Of a DNA stretch of 64,000 nt, positions 3,919 through 45,916 are shown piece by piece (position 1 is the first letter of the stretch; every line of letters starts with the position of its first letter). The position numbers and the translations under genes were made by a program. Origin of the DNA: Escherichia coli. GTDB taxonomy: Bacteria > Pseudomonadota > Gammaproteobacteria > Enterobacterales > Enterobacteriaceae. The notes beneath the pieces are model-generated. The model was given only the letters and a program-made list of their open reading frames with translations, had not been told where the DNA came from and ran no database searches. The stretch lies in NCBI RefSeq assembly GCF_003790525.1, contig NZ_CP033635.1; one strand, given 5' to 3'.

Positions 3919-5626
3919 ACTGCACCGACTCCGTCGACGTAACTTCACCACTGGAAACTACGCCCGCATTCATGGTTTGAGTCACTTGCTGCTTTGCGGC
4001 ATTCACGGCATGCAATTGCCCGCTAACCGTAGGTTTCAGCGGGATATTGGCCTGAATATTGCCGCTGGCGGTAAGCTGAATATTGCCGTCGCCAGTCAAC
4101 GGTAATTCAGGCCATCCCCACTGTTGCAAAATATTCACCGGCACACCGCGTCCATTCAGGCTGATATGGGTCTGACGTTGTGGCGTTTGTGAAACACTGG
4201 CGGTGGCTTCCAGAATGCCTTTTTCAGTAAATGCACTCAGTTCGCTGATATTCACCGTGCTGCTGTTGGCGGTCAGCGCCAGCGATGGGCGACGAACATC
4301 AACACGATTGAATGTCGCGGCGGCGGCATTCAGATTCGCCGAACCACTCCAGACGCCCCATTTATGATCGGTAACCAGCGTCAGGTTGGCACCGTAACCA
4401 TCGAGCGCGGTGAGCTGCCACGGGAAGTCAGGGTCGATATCAATGATCAGATTGCGGCTGGCGCTAAATCTCTTCAGTTGCAGGCTGTTTAACCAACCGG
4501 GTGTCGTTTCCATCCACAACTGTTGCCAGTTTTTTGGCAAGGTATATTCCAGTCCGGCAATTGCCGCATCATCGAGGATCAACATTTTCCCGTCACGCAA
4601 CCAGTTCCCTGACGTTCTGACCATGCCCCCTTCCCAGCGGCTGGTGAACTGGCGCAGTGCTACGCCCTGCGGGGAAAATTCCGCGTTTATAATCGGATCA
4701 AATAAATGCAGCGAGCCATAAATAAACTCGCTGGCGTTCATCGACAGTTTACCTTCCTGTGTCTGCCAGTCATCTTTACTGAAGGTCATGTTGCGCAAGC
4801 TGAGATCGAGGTCGGTCACCGCCCAGTCCGGACCTTGCAAACGAGCGTCGATGACTTCCAGGCGACCAATCTGCAACGACGGGACAGAGCGTAATGGCGC
4901 AAAGAAGTCGGTTAGCGATTTTTCGCTTTGTAGACGGATATCCGCCATGCGCAGGTTTTCCACTTGCCAGCTGCCGTCAGCGTTACGCTGCGCGTTTCCG
5001 GTTAATGTCCCGCGGGCGATGTCGGCACCCAGGTTAGTCAGCGTAACGCGATCGTTATCAATACTGCCTTCAATCAGTACATTGGTGGCAGGAACATCAT
5101 TGAGCGAAAGCGATCCGGCACTAAACTGAATCTGCGCCTTCGTACCCAGCACTTTACCGGCTTCTGGTGACCAAGGAACCACGCCGCCATTTACCCGCTG
5201 CGCGCTCAGTTTCCATTCGCTATTCGGGCTATTAAACGCCATATCACGTAGTTGCAGACGATCGGCTTTGAACGGTAGCGGCGCGGTCTGGTCGGTGAGA
5301 TTCAGCGTCCCGTTTTCCAGCAGGATGGTATCGACATGGCGTGGTTCGGTCAGTTGCCGACTGCTTAGCGCAATGTCGACACTTTTTGCCACCAGGGTCG
5401 CGGGCTGGCCATCACGGCCAAACGTGACGTTCTCCAGCACGATATGAGATGGCGCGGAAAAACGGTGATCCATCGCCCCGAAGGCCAGATGATAGTCGCT
5501 ATTCTCGGAAACCCATGCGCTGATATGTTCTGCTCCCCAGCGAGTTTGCAGCAGAAAATAGAGGCCAGCGATCACCACTAACAGAGCGATGAGAATGTAG
5601 AGAAGCAGCTTCCCAATAAATTTCAT
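3917..5626 (-). CDS. yicH: AsmA-family outer membrane biogenesis protein YicH
   Basis: 569 aa from MKFIGKLLLYILIALLVV; N-terminal TM anchor; position next to xanP as in K-12. Confidence 0.8.
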   Translation of the reverse strand: MKFIGKLLLYILIALLVVIAGLYFLLQTRWGAEHISAWVSENSDYHLAFGAMDHRFSAPSHIVLENVTFGRDGQPATLVAKSVDIALSSRQLTEPRHVDTILLENGTLNLTDQTAPLPFKADRLQLRDMAFNSPNSEWKLSAQRVNGGVVPWSPEAGKVLGTKAQIQFSAGSLSLNDVPATNVLIEGSIDNDRVTLTNLGADIARGTLTGNAQRNADGSWQVENLRMADIRLQSEKSLTDFFAPLRSVPSLQIGRLEVIDARLQGPDWAVTDLDLSLRNMTFSKDDWQTQEGKLSMNASEFIYGSLHLFDPIINAEFSPQGVALRQFTSRWEGGMVRTSGNWLRDGKMLILDDAAIAGLEYTLPKNWQQLWMETTPGWLNSLQLKRFSASRNLIIDIDPDFPWQLTALDGYGANLTLVTDHKWGVWSGSANLNAAAATFNRVDVRRPSLALTANSSTVNISELSAFTEKGILEATASVSQTPQRQTHISLNGRGVPVNILQQWGWPELPLTGDGNIQLTASGNIQANIPLKPTVSGQLHAVNAAKQQVTQTMNAGVVSSGEVTSTESVQ

Positions 5627-14685: not shown

Positions 14686-17073
<2,388 letters not shown>

Positions 17074-39056: not shown

Positions 39057-39989
39057 TTATGCGTCACGATTCAGCCAGGCCATGTATTCCGTTACGCCTT
39101 CGGCAACGGTTTTGAACGGTTTATCGTAACCCGCCGCGCGCAGATTCGTCAGATCTGCCTGCGTGAACGCCTGGTAGCGGCCTTTCAGTTTATCCGGGAA
39201 CGGAATGTATTCGATTTGGCCTTTCTTGTGATAAGCAAGTGTAGCATCTGCTACTGCCTGGAAGGATTCCGCACGACCGGTGCCGAGGTTGAAGATGCCG
39301 GAAACGCCATTTTCCAGGAACCACAGGTTTACATCTGCCACATCGCCCACATAGACGAAGTCACGTTTGAAGTTCTCGCTACCTTCGAACAGCTTCGGTG
39401 ATTCACCGTTATTAAGCTGGGTGTTGAGATGGAAAGCGACGCTCGCCATGCTGCCTTTATGGCCTTCACGCGGTCCATAAACGTTGAAATAACGGAAGCC
39501 AACAATCTGCGAGTTGGCTTCCGGCAGGATTTGGCGAACATATTCATCAAACAGGAACTTCGAATAACCGTAGACGTTAAGTGGTTTTTCGTACTCGCGG
39601 GATTCAATAAAGTCGGAAGTGCGTCCGCCGTAAGTGGCTGCAGAAGAAGCGTACAGCAACGGGATTTCGCGCTCCAGGCAGTAGTGCAGCAGCTCTTTGG
39701 AGTATTGATAGTTGTTATCCATCATATACTTGCCGTCCCACTCGGTGGTGGAAGAGCACGCGCCTTCGTGGAAAATCGCTTCGACATCGCCGAACTCTTC
39801 GCCAGCCATAATCTGGATCAGGAAGTCTTCCTTATCCATATAGTCCGCGATATCCAGATCCACCAGGTTCACAAACTTGGTGCCGTCTTTCAGGTTATCC
39901 ACCACCAGAATATCGGTGATGCCTTTGTCATTCAGGGCTTTAACGATGTTGCTGCCGATAAAGCCCGCGCCGCCGGTAACGATGATCAT
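39057..39989 (-). CDS. hldD: ADP-L-glycero-D-manno-heptose 6-epimerase
   Basis: 310 aa [23 protein letters not shown] (Rossmann NAD motif). Confidence 0.92.
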
Positions 39990-40202
39990 AACTGTAACCT
40001 TCGAATTATGGAGTCAGAGACAATCTCAGACACGAATGCTTCTATCATATCACTACACGGCGTTGGCTTCAGCCATTCGCCAAAAGTGAGATTGATGGAC
40101 GTTATTTATCCTGAATTTTGCAGAAGTGTTAATGCGTCATCTCGTCGCGACCTATAAGTTTGGGTAATATGTGCTGGAATTTGCCCTGTCTGGAGAATCG
40201 CA

Positions 40203-41408: not shown

Positions 41409-42434
41409 ATGAAAGCGTTATCCAAACTGAAAGCGGAAGAGGGCATCTGGATGACCGACGTTCCTGTACCAGAACTCGGGCATAACGATCTGCTGATTAA
41501 AATCCGTAAAACAGCCATCTGCGGGACTGACGTTCACATCTATAACTGGGATGAGTGGTCGCAAAAAACCATCCCGGTGCCGATGGTCGTGGGCCATGAA
41601 TATGTCGGTGAAGTGGTAGGTATTGGTCAGGAAGTGAAAGGCTTCAAGATTGGCGATCGCGTTTCTGGCGAAGGCCATATCACCTGCGGTCACTGTCGCA
41701 ACTGTCGTGGCGGTCGTACCCATCTGTGCCGCAACACGATCGGCGTCGGCGTTAACCGTCCGGGCTGCTTTGCCGAGTATCTGGTGATTCCGGCGTTCAA
41801 CGCTTTCAAAATCCCCGACAATATCTCCGATGATCTGGCTTCCATTTTTGATCCCTTCGGTAACGCCGTGCATACCGCGCTGTCGTTTGATCTGGTGGGC
41901 GAGGATGTGCTGGTCTCTGGTGCAGGCCCGATTGGTATTATGGCGGCGGCGGTGGCGAAACACGTTGGTGCACGTAACGTGGTGATTACTGATGTTAACG
42001 AATACCGCCTTGAGCTGGCGCGTAAAATGGGTATCACCCGTGCGGTTAACGTCGCGAAAGAAAACCTTAATGATGTGATGACAGAACTGGGCATGACCGA
42101 AGGCTTTGATGTCGGTCTGGAAATGTCCGGTGCGCCGCCAGCGTTTCGTACCATGCTCGACACCATGAACCACGGCGGTCGTATTGCGATGCTGGGTATT
42201 CCACCGTCCGATATGTCTATCGACTGGACCAAAGTAATCTTTAAAGGCTTGTTCATTAAAGGTATTTACGGTCGTGAGATGTTTGAAACCTGGTACAAGA
42301 TGGCGGCGCTGATTCAGTCTGGCCTCGATCTCTCGCCGATCATTACCCATCGTTTCTCTATCGATGATTTCCAGAAGGGCTTTGACGCTATGCGTTCGGG
42401 CCAGTCCGGGAAAGTTATTCTGAGCTGGGATTAA
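41409..42434 (+). CDS. tdh: L-threonine 3-dehydrogenase
   Basis: 341 aa zinc alcohol-dehydrogenase family; [16 protein letters not shown]. Confidence 0.92.
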
Positions 42435-42442
42435 CACGAACA

Positions 42443-42466
42443 AGGGCTGGTATTCCAGCCCTTTTG
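42443..42466 (+). terminator. Rho-independent terminator after tdh
   Basis: AGGGCTGG-tatt-CCAGCCCT followed by TTTG. Confidence 0.6.
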
Positions 42467-42672
42467 CCTGAGGAAAATCCGTTAAATATGTAAAATCCTG
42501 TCAGTGTAATCAAGATATCGTAATTGCGCTGATCTCTTATATAGCTGCTCTCATTATCTCTCTACCCTGAAGTGACTCTCTCACCGGTAAAAATAATATC
42601 TCACAGGCTTAATAGTTTCTTAATACAAAGCCTGTAAAACGTCAGGGTAACTTCAGAGATCGTTGGTAATTT

Positions 42673-43707
42673 ATGATGAACAGCACTAATAAACTAAGTG
42701 TTATTATCCCGTTATATAATGCGGGCGATGATTTCAGCGCTTGCATGGAATCTTTAATCGCGCAAACCTGGACTGCTCTGGAAATCATTATTATTAACGA
42801 TGGTTCAACGGATAATTCTGTTGAAATAGCAAAGCATTACGCAGAAAACTATCCGCACGTTCGTTTGTTGCATCAGGCGAATGCTGGCGCATCGGTGGCG
42901 CGTAATCGTGGGATCGAGGTGGCGACGGGCAAATATGTCGCTTTTGTCGATGCTGACGATGAGGTGTATCCCACCATGTACGAAACGCTGATGACCATGG
43001 CGTTAGAGGACGACCTCGACGTGGCGCAGTGCAACGCTGATTGGTGTTTTCGTGAAACGGGTGAAACCTGGCAATCCATCCCTACCGATCGCCTTCGCTC
43101 AACCGGTGTATTAACCGGTCCGGACTGGCTGCGGATGGGGCTTTCTTCCCGCCGTTGGACACACGTGGTCTGGATGGGGGTTTATCGCCGCGATGTTATT
43201 GTTAAAAATAACATTAAATTTATTGCCGGATTACATCATCAGGATATTGTCTGGACAACAGAATTTATGTTTAACGCGCTGCGTGCGCGATATACCGAGC
43301 AATCATTATATAAATATTATCTGCATAATACGTCAGTGAGTCGGTTGAACAGACAAGGGAACAAAAACCTTAATTATCAACGTCACTATATTAAGATTAC
43401 CCGCCTGCTGGAGAAATTAAATCGAAATTATGCCGACAAAATTACGATTTATCCGGAATTTCATCAGCAAATAACCTACGAAGCATTGCGTGTTTGCCAT
43501 GCGGTGCGCAAAGAGCCGGATATTATTACCCGCCAACGGATGATTGCCGAGATATTTACTTCCGGTATGTATAAGCGCCTGATTACCAATGTGCGCAGCG
43601 TGAAGGTGGGTTATCAGGCGTTACTGTGGTCTTTCCGCTTATGGCAATGGCGCGACAAAACGCGGTCGCACCATCGCATTACGCGTAGCGCCTTTAATTT
43701 GCGCTAG
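42673..43707 (+). CDS. waaH: GT2-family glycosyltransferase WaaH (YibD)
   Basis: 344 aa; GT2 motifs SVIIPLYN, INDGSTDNS, DADDE. Confidence 0.8.
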   Translation: MMNSTNKLSVIIPLYNAGDDFSACMESLIAQTWTALEIIIINDGSTDNSVEIAKHYAENYPHVRLLHQANAGASVARNRGIEVATGKYVAFVDADDEVYPTMYETLMTMALEDDLDVAQCNADWCFRETGETWQSIPTDRLRSTGVLTGPDWLRMGLSSRRWTHVVWMGVYRRDVIVKNNIKFIAGLHHQDIVWTTEFMFNALRARYTEQSLYKYYLHNTSVSRLNRQGNKNLNYQRHYIKITRLLEKLNRNYADKITIYPEFHQQITYEALRVCHAVRKEPDIITRQRMIAEIFTSGMYKRLITNVRSVKVGYQALLWSFRLWQWRDKTRSHHRITRSAFNLR

Positions 43708-44653
43708 CGTTAAGCTTCGCCGCTTGAGGCTGTTTGCCCCAGCCTTGCCACTGATGCTGGAAGTAAACGATCAGCGTGCTCTGGCTGATGCTTTCGCTTA
43801 ATACTTCAAAGAAGCGATTAGCATAAACAGGTTCCAGCGGCTTCTTCGGTTTGCACAGCTTCACGCCACGGAATGGATTACGCGGTGTGTCGGGCACAGT
43901 GTTTTTCGGCGGTGTAGACGTATCAACCTGCGGTTCATTCAACAAGCTGCTGGCTTTCACCAGCGTAATGTCTGGCGGCAGGTTATAAACCATCTGTTGT
44001 AGCACGCGTACCGTTGAAGGGTGAGGATGTCCAATGGCAATGGTTGAACCGTTGCGACGCGCCAGGTCAATTGCGCGATTGAATTGCACACGGATGTCCG
44101 CTTCATTTTGCGAATCGTCGAGGAACACCTTCCGTTTGATCACCTTCACGCCAGTGCCTTGCGCGGCGCGCATCGCCTGGGTATTACCGATGGTTACGCT
44201 GTCGAGGAAGTAAAGATTGTAACGCTCCAGCGCCTGCATCACTTTCTGCATACCAAACAGGTTAGAGGTCATCTTGCTGCCCATGTGGTTGTTGATCCCC
44301 ACGGCATAGGGCACGTTATTGACCGCACTACGAATAATGCGCTCAATTTCGTCGCTGCTCATCTCCGGGCGTAGCGTATTTTTCTCCAGCGGCTGTTTAC
44401 TCAGTGGTGCCATCGGTAGATGAATCAACACTTCGTGACCGCTGTTATGCGCTTTGGTCGCCATCTCTCTGGCGTGCGGTGAATCGGGTAATACAGCGAC
44501 GGAGATAGCGGAAGGCATCGCCAGCACCTGGTTTTCGTTGTGCGGGCGATACCCAAAATCATCAATGACGATGGCAAGTTTGCCAGCAATTACGGGGGAG
44601 GAGAGCGCCAACAGAGCGGCAAATGCAAGAACGTTACGACGAAATGGAAACAA
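43694..44653 (-). CDS. yibQ: divergent polysaccharide deacetylase family protein YibQ
   Basis: 319 aa with signal peptide; 3' end overlaps the waaH 3' end by 14 bp (convergent). Confidence 0.8.
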   Translation of the reverse strand: MFPFRRNVLAFAALLALSSPVIAGKLAIVIDDFGYRPHNENQVLAMPSAISVAVLPDSPHAREMATKAHNSGHEVLIHLPMAPLSKQPLEKNTLRPEMSSDEIERIIRSAVNNVPYAVGINNHMGSKMTSNLFGMQKVMQALERYNLYFLDSVTIGNTQAMRAAQGTGVKVIKRKVFLDDSQNEADIRVQFNRAIDLARRNGSTIAIGHPHPSTVRVLQQMVYNLPPDITLVKASSLLNEPQVDTSTPPKNTVPDTPRNPFRGVKLCKPKKPLEPVYANRFFEVLSESISQSTLIVYFQHQWQGWGKQPQAAKLNASAN

Positions 44654-44656
44654 AAC

Positions 44657-45916
44657 TTATCTTCCCAACCACGGCTGTGGATTGACCGCCTGACCCTGGC
44701 GGCGAATTTCGAAATAGAGTGAAGGCCGACCCTGACCGCCACTGCTGCCCACCAGTGCAATTGGCTGGCCCGCGCGAACCTGCGAACCAACGCTCACCAG
44801 TGCGCTCTGATTATAGCCGTAAAGACTCATGTCGCCTTTACCGTGCTCAACCACCACCACCAGACCGTAGCCTTGCAGCCAGTCAGCCAGAATCACCCGG
44901 CCGTCGGCAATCGCTTTAACTTCAGTACCTTCAGAGGCACCAATCACCATCCCTTTCCAGCGTAATTCACCCTGTAGCTGTTCGCCATAGCGATGCAGCG
45001 TTGGCCCGCGAACTGGCCAGAATGCCTGACCGCGCGGTGCGCCCAGACCACCGGTACGGGACATCAGCGATTTTTCGCTTTCGGTCGGCTTGTAGGTGGT
45101 GCCTTTGCGCGTCGCTTCTTTCTGGCGGTCGCGAACCGCCTGGGCTTCGCGCGCTTCACGTTCAGCACGCGCTTTCGCCGCAGCTTCCGCACGGGCAATG
45201 CTGTTACGCAGGCGGGATTCGTTGGCGCGCAGCTCGCTCAACTGTTGCTGACCTTGCTGGATGGAAGACTCCAGCCCTGCCAGCGTCTTTTTACGCTCGC
45301 TCAACGCCTGGGTCAGCTTCGCCTGTTGGGCGCGCTGCTCATATAAAAGCGTTTGTTGCTCGCTCTGTTTCTCTTCCAGTTCGGCACGCTGCATAGCGAC
45401 TTCTTCACGCGTTTGTTTCAACTGAGCAATGGTTTCTTGTCGCGCCTGGTTGAGATAGCCGAAATAAGCCTGTAACCGCTGCCCACGCTGGCTTTCTTCA
45501 CCGCTGAGAATCAGCTGAATACCGGTATGTTCACCCTGACGAAACGCGGCATCCAGTTGCGCGGCGAGGCTGCGCTCCTGGGCGGCTTTTTGCTGCTCCA
45601 GTTTGGCAATCGACGCGTTCATCTCATCAATCTGTTTATTCAGTTGATTAAGCGTGTTTTGCGTTTCGCGCAGTTTACGGGTGGCTTCAGAGATCGCTTC
45701 TTCCTGCTTTTTCAATTGTGCGAGCAGGCTTGCGCGTTGTTGTTGCTTTTGGCGTACCGCGCGCTCTTTCGCGGCGATGTCAGCCTGAATGGATTTGAGT
45801 TGGTCACGCTCATCCGCGTGGGCGGAAAAGGCGCACAACAATACGCCAGCGCTCAGAACGCTGGCGTAGATGATGGGCCTGATTGCAAACCTGCGCGGTT
45901 TCACGGCCCGTGTCAT
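44657..45916 (-). CDS. envC: murein hydrolase activator EnvC (coiled-coil plus LytM domain)
   Basis: 419 aa from MTRAVKPRRFAIRP; long Q/A/E-rich coiled coil then a degenerate LytM domain. Confidence 0.85.
   Translation of the reverse strand: MTRAVKPRRFAIRPIIYASVLSAGVLLCAFSAHADERDQLKSIQADIAAKERAVRQKQQQRASLLAQLKKQEEAISEATRKLRETQNTLNQLNKQIDEMNASIAKLEQQKAAQERSLAAQLDAAFRQGEHTGIQLILSGEESQRGQRLQAYFGYLNQARQETIAQLKQTREEVAMQRAELEEKQSEQQTLLYEQRAQQAKLTQALSERKKTLAGLESSIQQGQQQLSELRANESRLRNSIARAEAAAKARAEREAREAQAVRDRQKEATRKGTTYKPTESEKSLMSRTGGLGAPRGQAFWPVRGPTLHRYGEQLQGELRWKGMVIGASEGTEVKAIADGRVILADWLQGYGLVVVVEHGKGDMSLYGYNQSALVSVGSQVRAGQPIALVGSSGGQGRPSLYFEIRRQGQAVNPQPWLGR

Follow-up and report, generated by a model that had tools for sequence, protein, structure and literature searches.

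The convergent genes waaH and yibQ of Escherichia coli share the last bases of their coding sequences, and the question that this locus raises is whether such a tail-to-tail overlap serves as a regulatory device or is a by-product of the way in which the two genes are packed. The window analysed here is a stretch of 64,000 nucleotides from E. coli (contig NZ_CP033635.1 of assembly GCF_003790525.1). The initial annotation placed the waaH stop at 43707 and the yibQ stop at 43694, facing each other with 14 bp in common and no room for a terminator, and proposed that the transcripts of both genes read into each other, with scope for mutual antisense control or interference. The sequence, the ORF list and the RefSeq annotation of strains SMS-3-5 and K-12 agreed exactly with this geometry. 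The waaH ORF ends with the codons GCC TTT AAT TTG CGC TAG (stop 43705-43707) and the yibQ ORF with GCT AGC GCA AAT TAA (stop 43696-43694), the yibQ stop lying opposite the Phe-Asn codons (TTT AAT) of WaaH. In SMS-3-5 (NC_010498.1), which is 100% identical to the window, the RefSeq CDS ends of both genes match, and in K-12 MG1655 the same overlap is annotated between yibQ, 3788101..3789060 (+), and waaH, 3789047..3790081 (-). Of the 5426 complete E. coli genomes searched, 5419 carry the junction segment, and one natural strain, PKF8, is truncated by IS1 and is without the 5′ portion of waaH. The overlap is real, ordinary and already known, being present in the public annotation of E. coli genomes. 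The features of the region are listed in Table 1.

Table 1. Positions in the window of the genes, overlap, RNA structures and termination signals around the waaH/yibQ junction
Feature	Position	Strand	Basis or remark
Bidirectional intrinsic terminator hairpin AAGGGCTGGTATTCCAGCCCTTTT, directly after tdh	42442..42467	both	consensus scan and homologous hairpins
waaH (yibD) CDS, 344 aa, UDP-glucuronate:LPS(HepIII) glycosyltransferase	42673..43707	+	ORF list, RefSeq, NCBIfam, Pfam
Published Rho-dependent termination region of yibQ-strand RNA, antisense to waaH	43330..43410 (approx.)	-	PMC7815308 and coordinate mapping
Candidate Rho loading region of yibQ read-through RNA, C>G	43530..43673	-	composition only
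13-bp stem-loop in yibQ-sense RNA, within the waaH CDS	43644..43677	-	17-50 nt past the yibQ stop, no U-tract
Inverted repeat ACGC-G-TAGCGC ... GCGCTA-GCGT spanning the overlap	43681..43710	either	10-bp bulged hairpin, no U-tract after it
14-bp tail-to-tail CDS overlap TTAATTTGCGCTAG	43694..43707	both	sequence and ORF list; codes (F)NLR-stop of WaaH and (A)SAN-stop of YibQ
yibQ (sddA) CDS, 319 aa, final gene of the gpmM-envC-yibQ operon	43694..44653	-	ORF list, RefSeq, PF04748
Part of the yibQ tail outside waaH, coding GKQPQAAKLN after QWQGW	43708..43738	-	poorly conserved, identity 0.26

Both genes are well supported at the protein level. WaaH matched NCBIfam NF007482 with 634 bits (cutoff 423) and Pfam PF00535 over residues 9-137, and its C-terminal A-[LFI]-N-L motif was conserved across genera. 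YibQ matched Pfam PF04748 over residues 28-238, and beyond this catalytic domain residues 239-319 make up a C-terminal tail that is disordered and in which the frame continues from a conserved QWQGW (residues 301-305), 14 codons ahead of the stop. Depending on which of its three possible frames the yibQ tail followed after QWQGW, the outcome would be an overlap of 14 nt, an overlap of 69 nt or a gap of 2 nt. The gene ends are not open to revision, since homology or conserved motifs fix both frames and the first in-frame stop closes each ORF. Neither ORF contains an earlier in-frame stop, and a re-annotation that would abolish the overlap was ruled out on these grounds. The overlap is that of a tail-to-tail pair of genuine genes on opposite strands, with both frames supported up to the overlap itself. 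The label of periplasmic deacetylase-like protein first given to YibQ is outdated: the protein is now named SddA, a septal denuded-glycan peptidoglycan deacetylase, of which the 319-aa full-length form was characterised experimentally, residues 24-238 being fully active and the C-terminus flexible (bioRxiv 10.1101/2025.02.18.638797). One mention of 'yibQ' in the literature is a typographical error for another gene.

The overlap is not statistically unusual. Nine convergent pairs are annotated in the window, two of which overlap (yibQ/waaH by 14 bp and yicG/ligB by 4 bp) and one of which has a gap of 10 bp. The yicG/ligB pair likewise consists of genuine opposite-strand genes, annotated in RefSeq, that share a few 3′-terminal bases, and in pairs of this kind the stop of one gene is the antisense of the last codons of the other via palindromic TTAA or CTAG motifs. 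The two pairs differ in the extent of the overlap, that of yicG/ligB being of the 4-bp TTAA/CTAG type which was also found in 5 waaH-bearing taxa. They also differ in what follows: a good hairpin ending in a T-rich tail lies inside ligB, 45 nt downstream of yicG, whereas yibQ has only a hairpin without a U-tract.

The claim that the junction leaves no room for a terminator was borne out, as there is zero intergenic space and neither the consensus scan nor the hairpin/T-tract scan gave a credible candidate for an intrinsic terminator there or close by. A weak 6-bp hairpin (43770-43789) was all that the consensus scan returned, and terminator-like sites near the junction were no more numerous than in shuffles. 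The hairpin and T-tract scan detected no strong bidirectional hairpin at the waaH/yibQ junction, in contrast to most other convergent junctions in the window, where such hairpins were found (slmA/pyrE, recG/gltS, yicH and rfaC). No Rfam match at E ≤ 1 was obtained within 42300-45000. A terminator inside the opposing CDS was also considered and rejected: the T-rich run TTTAATTT in the overlap is preceded only by a loose multi-branch structure, and if it acted as a terminator waaH would end ahead of its own stop codon. In E. coli the stem-loop at 43644-43677 is strong (the 151-nt segment that holds it has z = -3.7), and it may protect the 3′ end in Escherichia only. As a conserved element it was rejected, since an alignment of 32 sequences (61.8% paired) showed no covariation, the score of 0.058, against 0.064 for shuffled alignments, exceeding neither the shuffled nor the slid controls.

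Published K-12 data indicate where the yibQ transcript ends. A bicyclomycin (BCM)-sensitive Rho termination region, classed as antisense to waaH, was reported at K-12 3789384 (+) with a Rho score of 5.55 (p = 1.8e-15) and upstream/downstream reads of 106/28 without BCM and 187/274 with BCM (Adams et al. 2021, PMC7815308, Supplementary file 2). Its peak lies 324 nt beyond the yibQ stop, at window position ~43370, a position that is coarse because the score compares 800-nt windows. In the curated Term-seq list of the same study, the interval from 3786938 (+) to 3790287 (-) is free of 3′ ends on both strands. Taken together, the lack of a junction terminator, the Rho region within antisense waaH and the lack of a stable 3′ end support read-through of yibQ into antisense waaH, with Rho ending the transcript ~0.3 kb downstream. 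The yibQ-sense RNA has a modest C/G ratio of 1.3-1.5 over 20-160 nt past the stop, and in the waaH-sense RNA past its own stop the ratio is 0.54-1.1 over most of the first ~340 nt. The SMRT-Cappable-seq supplements contained no entry for waaH or yibQ.

Of the mutual read-through first proposed, the half from yibQ into waaH therefore stands on the K-12 Rho region, and the half from waaH into yibQ is one that we infer. The K-12 data show the gpmM-envC-yibQ transcript entering antisense waaH and being ended there by Rho; in the arrangement that we propose, waaH RNA would extend into antisense yibQ before ending. The waaH RNA would be plentiful when phosphate is limiting and scarce in rich medium, in which Rho additionally ends transcription ~39 nt inside the ORF. 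Such overlap of transcripts is common: complementary 3′ ends were found at 276 of 370 convergent E. coli operons (~75%), with a mean overlap of 286 nt, most of these operons having intergenic terminators (Conway et al. 2014, PMC4161252). The waaH/yibQ pair is like the cases of Conway et al. 2014 (PMC4161252) and Adams et al. 2021 (PMC7815308) in that the read-through RNA lies opposite the 3′ portion of the facing gene, as antisense; the extension of ~324 nt is near the mean of the former, and it is bicyclomycin-sensitive and of the 'antisense' class as in the latter. It differs from most published cases, which have a leaky intergenic terminator, in having none between the genes, because the coding sequences overlap.

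A comparison with related genomes suggests how a pair without a terminator arose. In K-12 the primary Term-seq 3′ end of tdh, 3790287 (-), corresponds to window position ~42467, at the hairpin that follows tdh. Where yibQ faces tdh directly, the gap of 39-115 bp carries a textbook A-tract/hairpin/T-tract terminator, and in two such loci (L010 and L012) the hairpin, AAGGGCTGG...CCAGCCC, is the same as that beside tdh in the window. These taxa with an empty slot between yibQ and tdh have the same neighbourhood as E. coli (gpmM-envC-yibQ facing kbl-tdh) and the same hairpin family. The difference is that in E. coli waaH and its promoter region separate the yibQ stop from the hairpin, which stays by tdh, 1.25 kb away, and can serve yibQ as no more than a remote back-stop. 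The tdh-side hairpin is likely to be the ancestral terminator shared by yibQ and tdh, and to act as a back-stop for yibQ read-through 1.25 kb further on. The waaH gene sits directly against yibQ, with no spacer, and separates it from the terminator which in the empty-slot taxa serves both yibQ and tdh; this placement would be the reason why the waaH/yibQ pair has no terminator of its own. We infer the evolutionary direction (insertion of waaH versus its repeated loss) from 80 sampled genomes without a phylogeny.

The survey covered 80 Enterobacteriaceae loci, and waaH was found convergent to yibQ in 33. Among these 33 loci the 14-bp overlap was present in 13 taxa, including Escherichia, Salmonella, several Citrobacter, Leclercia, Silvania and Cedecea; the two genes abutted (0 bp) in 10 taxa and overlapped by 4 bp in 5 taxa. 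A 152-bp overlap was found in one taxon, and gaps of 6, 14, 72 and 113 bp in one taxon apiece. The slot between tdh and yibQ is occupied by a lineage-variable LPS glycosyltransferase gene, which is waaH in E. coli. In taxa lacking waaH, other GT2 genes were convergent to yibQ, with junctions mostly ranging from a 4-bp overlap to a gap of ~56 bp. As these other GT2 genes are tightly packed too, tight packing belongs to the slot and not to waaH. The YibQ tail, with 12 or 14 residues after QWQGW, carries in-frame indels of 6 nt, yet the exact 14-bp register persists from genus to genus.

The two proteins are conserved to different degrees at the junction. Within the 14-bp class the mean pairwise amino acid identity was 0.26 for the YibQ tail and 0.35 for its last 4 residues, versus 0.68 for the last 4 residues of WaaH and 0.81 for WaaH residues -34 to -15. 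Within the overlap, a number of nucleotide differences leave WaaH unchanged and alter YibQ. These sequence comparisons indicate that the overlap follows the frame of WaaH and that the last residues of YibQ are an evolutionary by-product. Translation of YibQ runs beyond QWQGW through the disordered, catalysis-dispensable tail (12-14 aa in the taxa with the 14-bp overlap) to the first in-frame stop, a TAA (TGA in Salmonella) formed opposite the conserved Leu/Phe/Ile-Asn codons of WaaH. Selection on WaaH would in this way fix the overlap at 14 bp, and the last four residues of YibQ would be whatever the antisense of waaH happens to encode. We consider that the 14-bp overlap is probably a passive structural by-product and not a device.

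Some points count against the by-product reading. The register persists in spite of indels in the tail of YibQ, a possible sign of selection on its frame or C-terminus. The rise of SddA in a Δprc background, together with a structural model that places the tail at Prc, means that residues encoded by the overlap might matter. The inverted repeat at the junction, too, shows pairing in 15 taxa that somewhat exceeds that of shuffled and slid controls. It could be argued that the overlap is maintained since YibQ/SddA needs an exact C-terminus (…NASAN) as a Prc recognition tail, the 14 bp then being constrained by dual coding. In Δprc cells SddA-FLAG variants accumulate and SddA levels are up, and an AlphaFold3 model predicts the C-terminal KFNASAN of SddA in the Prc active site (bioRxiv 10.1101/2025.02.18.638797). 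The yibQ frame and its stop at the same TTAA are retained in 13 taxa through in-frame indels, and a YibQ tail ending in ...INANAN persists in two Citrobacter genomes that lost waaH. However, SddA with a FLAG tag on its C-terminus is stabilised in Δprc as well, which makes the native terminus dispensable, and by the authors' own statement the Prc cleavage site(s) in SddA are unknown (bioRxiv 10.1101/2025.02.18.638797). The last four residues of YibQ also vary freely (ASAN, ANAD, ANPD, ATPG, ISEG, AKTD, VNPG and VNTD) while the same bases conserve WaaH, and YibQ ends one residue past QWQGW in 10 taxa and is extended by ~50 residues in one. A required recognition tail is on this evidence highly improbable. 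Collision-type bidirectional terminators, reportedly described by Ju et al. in 2019, offer another explanation. In such a model, which has a hairpin requirement (Wang et al. 2022, bioRxiv 10.1101/2022.10.23.513370), a hairpin at the junction would pause RNA polymerase, converging and trailing polymerases would dislodge each other, and both mRNAs would end inside or close to the overlap, with neither Rho nor a U-tract involved. The overlap does coincide exactly with an inverted repeat, TAGCGC/GCGCTA extended by ACGC/GCGT, and in 15 taxa of the 14-bp class 77% of cells were paired, versus 73.4 ± 1.2% in shuffles and 17-47% in slid controls, with a covariation score of 0.209 versus 0.157. This weak signal, however, rests on one compensatory event (G-C in Escherichia vs A-U elsewhere) in a structure derived from one aligned sequence, and 70-nt junction-centred windows from 27 loci were no stabler than shuffles (mean z +0.25, -0.27) or flanking coding windows; a conserved junction hairpin was therefore not adopted. 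Moreover, Term-seq gave no 3′ end near the junction on either strand in three growth conditions, the yibQ-strand transcript demonstrably continues with a downstream loss that is Rho-dependent, and the collision model needs both genes to be well expressed, whereas waaH is weak in rich medium. We regard a collision-type terminator at this junction as very unlikely.

There remains the possibility of cross-talk between the two genes. In the excludon or noncontiguous operon, as associated with Sesto et al. in 2013 and Sáenz-Lahoya et al. in 2019, antisense transcription is said to exert reciprocal control over opposite-strand neighbours. The waaH/yibQ pair has in common with these systems its opposite-strand genes, its necessarily overlapping transcripts and one strongly inducible gene, but differs from them in that it has no dedicated long antisense transcript and its architecture is unconserved across taxa; the excludon idea is mentioned by Conway et al. 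2014 (PMC4161252). An excludon-like, conditional interference or antisense control would mean that under low phosphate or PmrA/QseB polymerases from waaH run head-on into yibQ and envC, that collision or duplex RNA lowers SddA/EnvC, coupling LPS core modification to septal peptidoglycan processing, and that in the reverse direction antisense RNA from yibQ read-through dampens waaH in rich medium. The absence of a terminator between the genes and the reach of yibQ-strand RNA into waaH (~324 nt antisense) are consistent with this. So is the RNA 3′ of waaH, which is G-rich and a poor Rho substrate (C/G 0.54-1.1 for most of ~340 nt), so that read-through may be long. The waaH promoter has been described in outline as a strong phosphate-starvation promoter used in biotechnology, and under low phosphate the listed part of Table S1 of PMC10294691 gives ~12,700 normalised counts for waaH and ~2,260 for envC. 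In the same listed rows, waaH was 4.3-fold higher (log2 +2.1) in the wild type than in ΔphoB, and envC, the operon mate of yibQ, changed in the predicted direction. Despite the strong response of waaH, however, this change in envC (log2 -0.4) was not significant (q = 0.19), and yibQ is not among the most significant rows listed (PMC10294691, Table S1). Furthermore, 75% of convergent E. coli operons have overlapping 3′ transcripts, to no known effect, and the junction geometry is unconserved, with overlaps of 14, 4 and 0 bp, gaps of up to 113 bp and differing glycosyltransferase genes in the slot. A literature search found no paper tying waaH to yibQ or envC expression. The antisense control or interference suggested at the outset is thus unsupported, and we consider it unlikely in either direction. 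A terminator-less junction that acts as a conditional switch, in which starvation or PmrA/QseB would make waaH read far into the G-rich yibQ-envC antisense and lower SddA/EnvC, is quite unlikely; if true, it would couple glucuronylation of the LPS inner core to septal peptidoglycan deacetylation and daughter-cell separation. Cross-talk between waaH and yibQ is probably small, like transcript overlap at most E. coli convergent operons.

As it stands, the overlap is of little import. It reflects two well-documented generalities: overlaps of a few bases are frequent between convergent genes, and the transcripts of such genes overlap as a rule, the antisense portion being trimmed by Rho. What the present analysis adds is an account of why this pair is terminator-less and of how the frame of WaaH sets the overlap. 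This is relevant to studies of the recognition of the SddA C-terminus by Prc and to the design of scarless deletions or tags for waaH or yibQ, where caution is needed since a knockout or C-terminal tag of either gene alters the last codons or the 3′ UTR of its partner.

The window matches E. coli SMS-3-5 (NC_010498.1) at 100% identity; the RefSeq annotation of that genome places the ends of waaH and yibQ just where they lie here, and the sequence and ORFs confirmed exactly the 14-bp tail-to-tail overlap described in the initial annotation. K-12 RefSeq gives the same ends. Of 5426 complete E. coli genomes, 5419 match a 401-bp segment that spans the junction (at least 80% coverage), with both genes annotated beneath the match in all sampled rows. 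WaaH scored 634 bits against its NCBIfam equivalog (cutoff 423) and also matched PF00535; PF04748 covers YibQ residues 28-238, and the conserved QWQGW motif lies 14 codons upstream of the yibQ stop in the same frame. Revised gene ends had been named as what could remove the overlap; it stands, as both ORFs stop at the first in-frame stop and the family matches and QWQGW support the frames. The overlap is already annotated and ordinary.

Features discussed in the text, with positions in the window and in K-12
Feature	Window	Strand	K-12	Details
waaH ORF	42673..43707	+	3789047..3790081 (-)	3′ end ...TTT AAT TTG CGC TAG
yibQ ORF	43694..44653	-	3788101..3789060 (+)	3′ end ...GCT AGC GCA AAT TAA
Bases common to waaH and yibQ	43694-43707			14 bp, TTAATTTGCGCTAG
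Inverted repeat across overlap	43681-43710			E. coli, z = -2.3
13-bp stem, yibQ-sense RNA	43644-43677			E. coli, z = -3.7
Rho region antisense to waaH (peak)	~43370		3789384 (+)	324 nt past yibQ stop; Rho score 5.55, p = 1.8e-15
Rho region inside waaH	~42712	+	3790042 (-)	39 nt into gene; score 5.77, p = 7e-13, LB
Hairpin directly after tdh	42442-42463
Primary 3′ end of tdh	~42467		3790287 (-)	mapped in K-12
Published Term-seq 3′ end in envC	roughly 45816		3786938 (+)	~100 nt into 5′ part; score 1.04, not Rho-dependent
yicG/ligB overlap	16456-16459			4 bp

The waaH (yibD) product is the UDP-glucuronate:LPS(HepIII) glycosyltransferase, which is induced by phosphate limitation, direct PhoB action being disputed. 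The product of yibQ, a gene now renamed sddA that belongs to the gpmM-envC-yibQ operon, is a periplasmic enzyme that deacetylates denuded glycan strands of peptidoglycan.

The RefSeq annotation of the 64-kb window contains nine convergent pairs, two of which overlap (yibQ/waaH and yicG/ligB); one is separated by a 10-bp gap and the remainder by 33-69 bp. In K-12, 704 convergent pairs were counted in a recent preprint. Depending on which of the three frames yibQ follows after QWQGW, the two genes would overlap by 14 nt, overlap by 69 nt or lie 2 nt apart, so the junction is tight whichever frame is used. A 14-bp overlap here is therefore not unusual. The two overlapping pairs differ in that only yicG/ligB has an embedded strong hairpin with a T-rich tail (GCTGGGCAG...CTGCCCAGC, -17.4 kcal/mol), located within ligB ~45 nt past the yicG stop.

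A search with YibQ, taking one genome per species, yielded 80 Enterobacteriaceae loci; at 33 of them yibQ converges with a waaH homologue (64-97% identity). The 14-bp overlap occurs in 13 taxa, including E. coli, E. albertii, Salmonella enterica diarizonae, Citrobacter amalonaticus, C. sedlakii, C. youngae, Leclercia, an Enterobacter, Silvania and Cedecea colo; five taxa have a 4-bp overlap (TTAA/CTAG/TTAG), ten have abutting stops (0 bp; C. freundii complex, Kluyvera), and gaps of 6, 14, 72 and 113 bp occur in one taxon apiece. Every YibQ contains QWQGW, and its tail beyond the motif is 1-14 residues long. In Superficieibacter electus (L025, 3709-3860), the single taxon with a 152-bp overlap, yibQ extends far beyond its usual stop, 152 nt antisense into waaH, adding ~50 residues relative to the related locus L023; long extensions are thus tolerated at the C-terminus of SddA. 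E. coli PKF8 (NZ_CP156813.1, 2750-3692) has lost kbl, tdh and, except for its last 192 nt, waaH through an IS1 insertion or deletion, whereas yibQ and the overlap are intact; PKF8 is a natural strain without waaH transcription into yibQ.

In taxa lacking waaH, the tdh-yibQ slot is usually filled by another GT2-family gene convergent to yibQ, with junctions mostly from a 4-bp overlap to a ~56-bp gap. In five taxa yibQ directly faces tdh across 39-115 bp holding a textbook bidirectional terminator, e.g. AAAAAAAGCGCCTGAGGGCGCTTTTTTT. The hairpin in two Citrobacter loci (L010 and L012), AAGGGCTGG...CCAGCCCTTTT, is the one found directly after tdh in the window, and in K-12 it is the mapped primary 3′ end of tdh; waaH and its promoter region therefore separate yibQ from the terminator that other taxa share between yibQ and tdh. 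At these two loci (Citrobacter sp. Awk 4 and R56; ~4940-5080) waaH is absent, YibQ ends in ...INANAN*, encoded by the 14 nt that form the waaH 3′ end in relatives, and the ~25 nt next to the tdh terminator are similar to the spacer between tdh and waaH in E. coli. The retained waaH-derived 14 nt thus indicate secondary loss, and by sequence comparison this looks like a clean waaH deletion sparing the yibQ stop. Across loci L005-L084 the content of the slot (window 42464-43707) varies by lineage: waaH occurs there as two divergent types (74-97% and 64-71% identity), Klebsiella, Raoultella and Lelliottia have an unrelated GT2 gene of ~265 aa, and elsewhere the slot contains other GT2 genes or is empty. 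GC in parts of waaH is as low as 0.38-0.40, compared with ~0.52 for the genes around it, which would fit horizontal exchange beside the waa cluster. Nearby, htrL, located between kbl and rfaD in K-12 (3792826-3793683), is absent from the window, the SMS-3-5 kbl-rfaD interval (window ~39900-40200) being a 213-bp gap only.

Terminator scans gave no credible intrinsic terminator at or near the junction, in agreement with the initial annotation, which saw no room for one. Adams et al. 2021 (PMC7815308) reported a Rho termination region antisense to waaH, where read counts in 800-nt windows went from 106 upstream to 28 downstream in untreated cells and from 187 to 274 under bicyclomycin. In their curated Term-seq list, the interval bounded by 3786938 (+) and 3790287 (-) contains no 3′ ends on either strand. 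Because of this antisense Rho region and the lack of a Term-seq 3′ end, these published K-12 data show that the yibQ operon reads into waaH and that Rho ends the read-through. The proposed mutual read-through thus holds for yibQ into waaH; that of waaH into yibQ, like the fate of waaH transcripts past their stop, we only infer. The yibQ-sense RNA has a modest excess of C over G 20-160 nt past the stop (ratio 1.3-1.5), and waaH-sense RNA is G-rich for ~340 nt beyond its stop. The Rho region inside waaH suggests that in rich medium transcription of this gene is attenuated or ends prematurely, and the 3′ end in envC may be an attenuator or processing site inside the gpmM-envC-yibQ operon.

No Rfam family matched the junction. 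Covariation was absent from the 13-bp stem across 32 sequences, pairing of the junction hairpin was slightly above controls (15 taxa) with a single compensatory event behind it, and 70-nt junction-centred windows at 27 loci did not exceed shuffles or flanking windows in stability. The 13-bp stem was accordingly rejected as a conserved element and the junction hairpin not adopted as one, both structures being taken as lineage-specific and partly coding-driven. That the junction acts as a collision-type terminator appears improbable. Complementary overlapping 3′ ends occur at 276 of 370 convergent operons (mean 286 nt; Conway et al.), so transcript overlap is the norm. At low phosphate, wild-type cells have 4.3 times the waaH level of ΔphoB cells (~12,700 versus ~2,980 normalised counts); despite this, envC changes by log2 -0.4 (q = 0.19), which leaves the suggested mutual antisense or interference unsupported, and interference confined to certain conditions is unlikely, if somewhat less so than a collision-type terminator.

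Amino-acid comparisons among the taxa of the 14-bp class give a mean pairwise identity of 0.26 for YibQ tail residues -14 to -5 and 0.35 for its last four, against 0.68 for the last four WaaH residues and 0.81 for WaaH residues -34 to -15. Several differences in the overlap are WaaH-silent and YibQ-changing, and the yibQ stop (TAA; TGA in Salmonella) lies opposite conserved WaaH Leu/Phe/Ile-Asn codons. On these sequence grounds the WaaH frame appears to govern the overlap, the last YibQ residues being a by-product. YibQ accumulates in Δprc cells, and its residues 239-319 are disordered and dispensable for activity; a dual coding constraint through a Prc degron is the least probable reading. 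Nothing yet sets waaH/yibQ apart functionally from other convergent pairs, and the overlap is probably a passive by-product of glycosyltransferase-cassette placement beside an unconstrained YibQ tail, with Rho clearing the read-through RNA.
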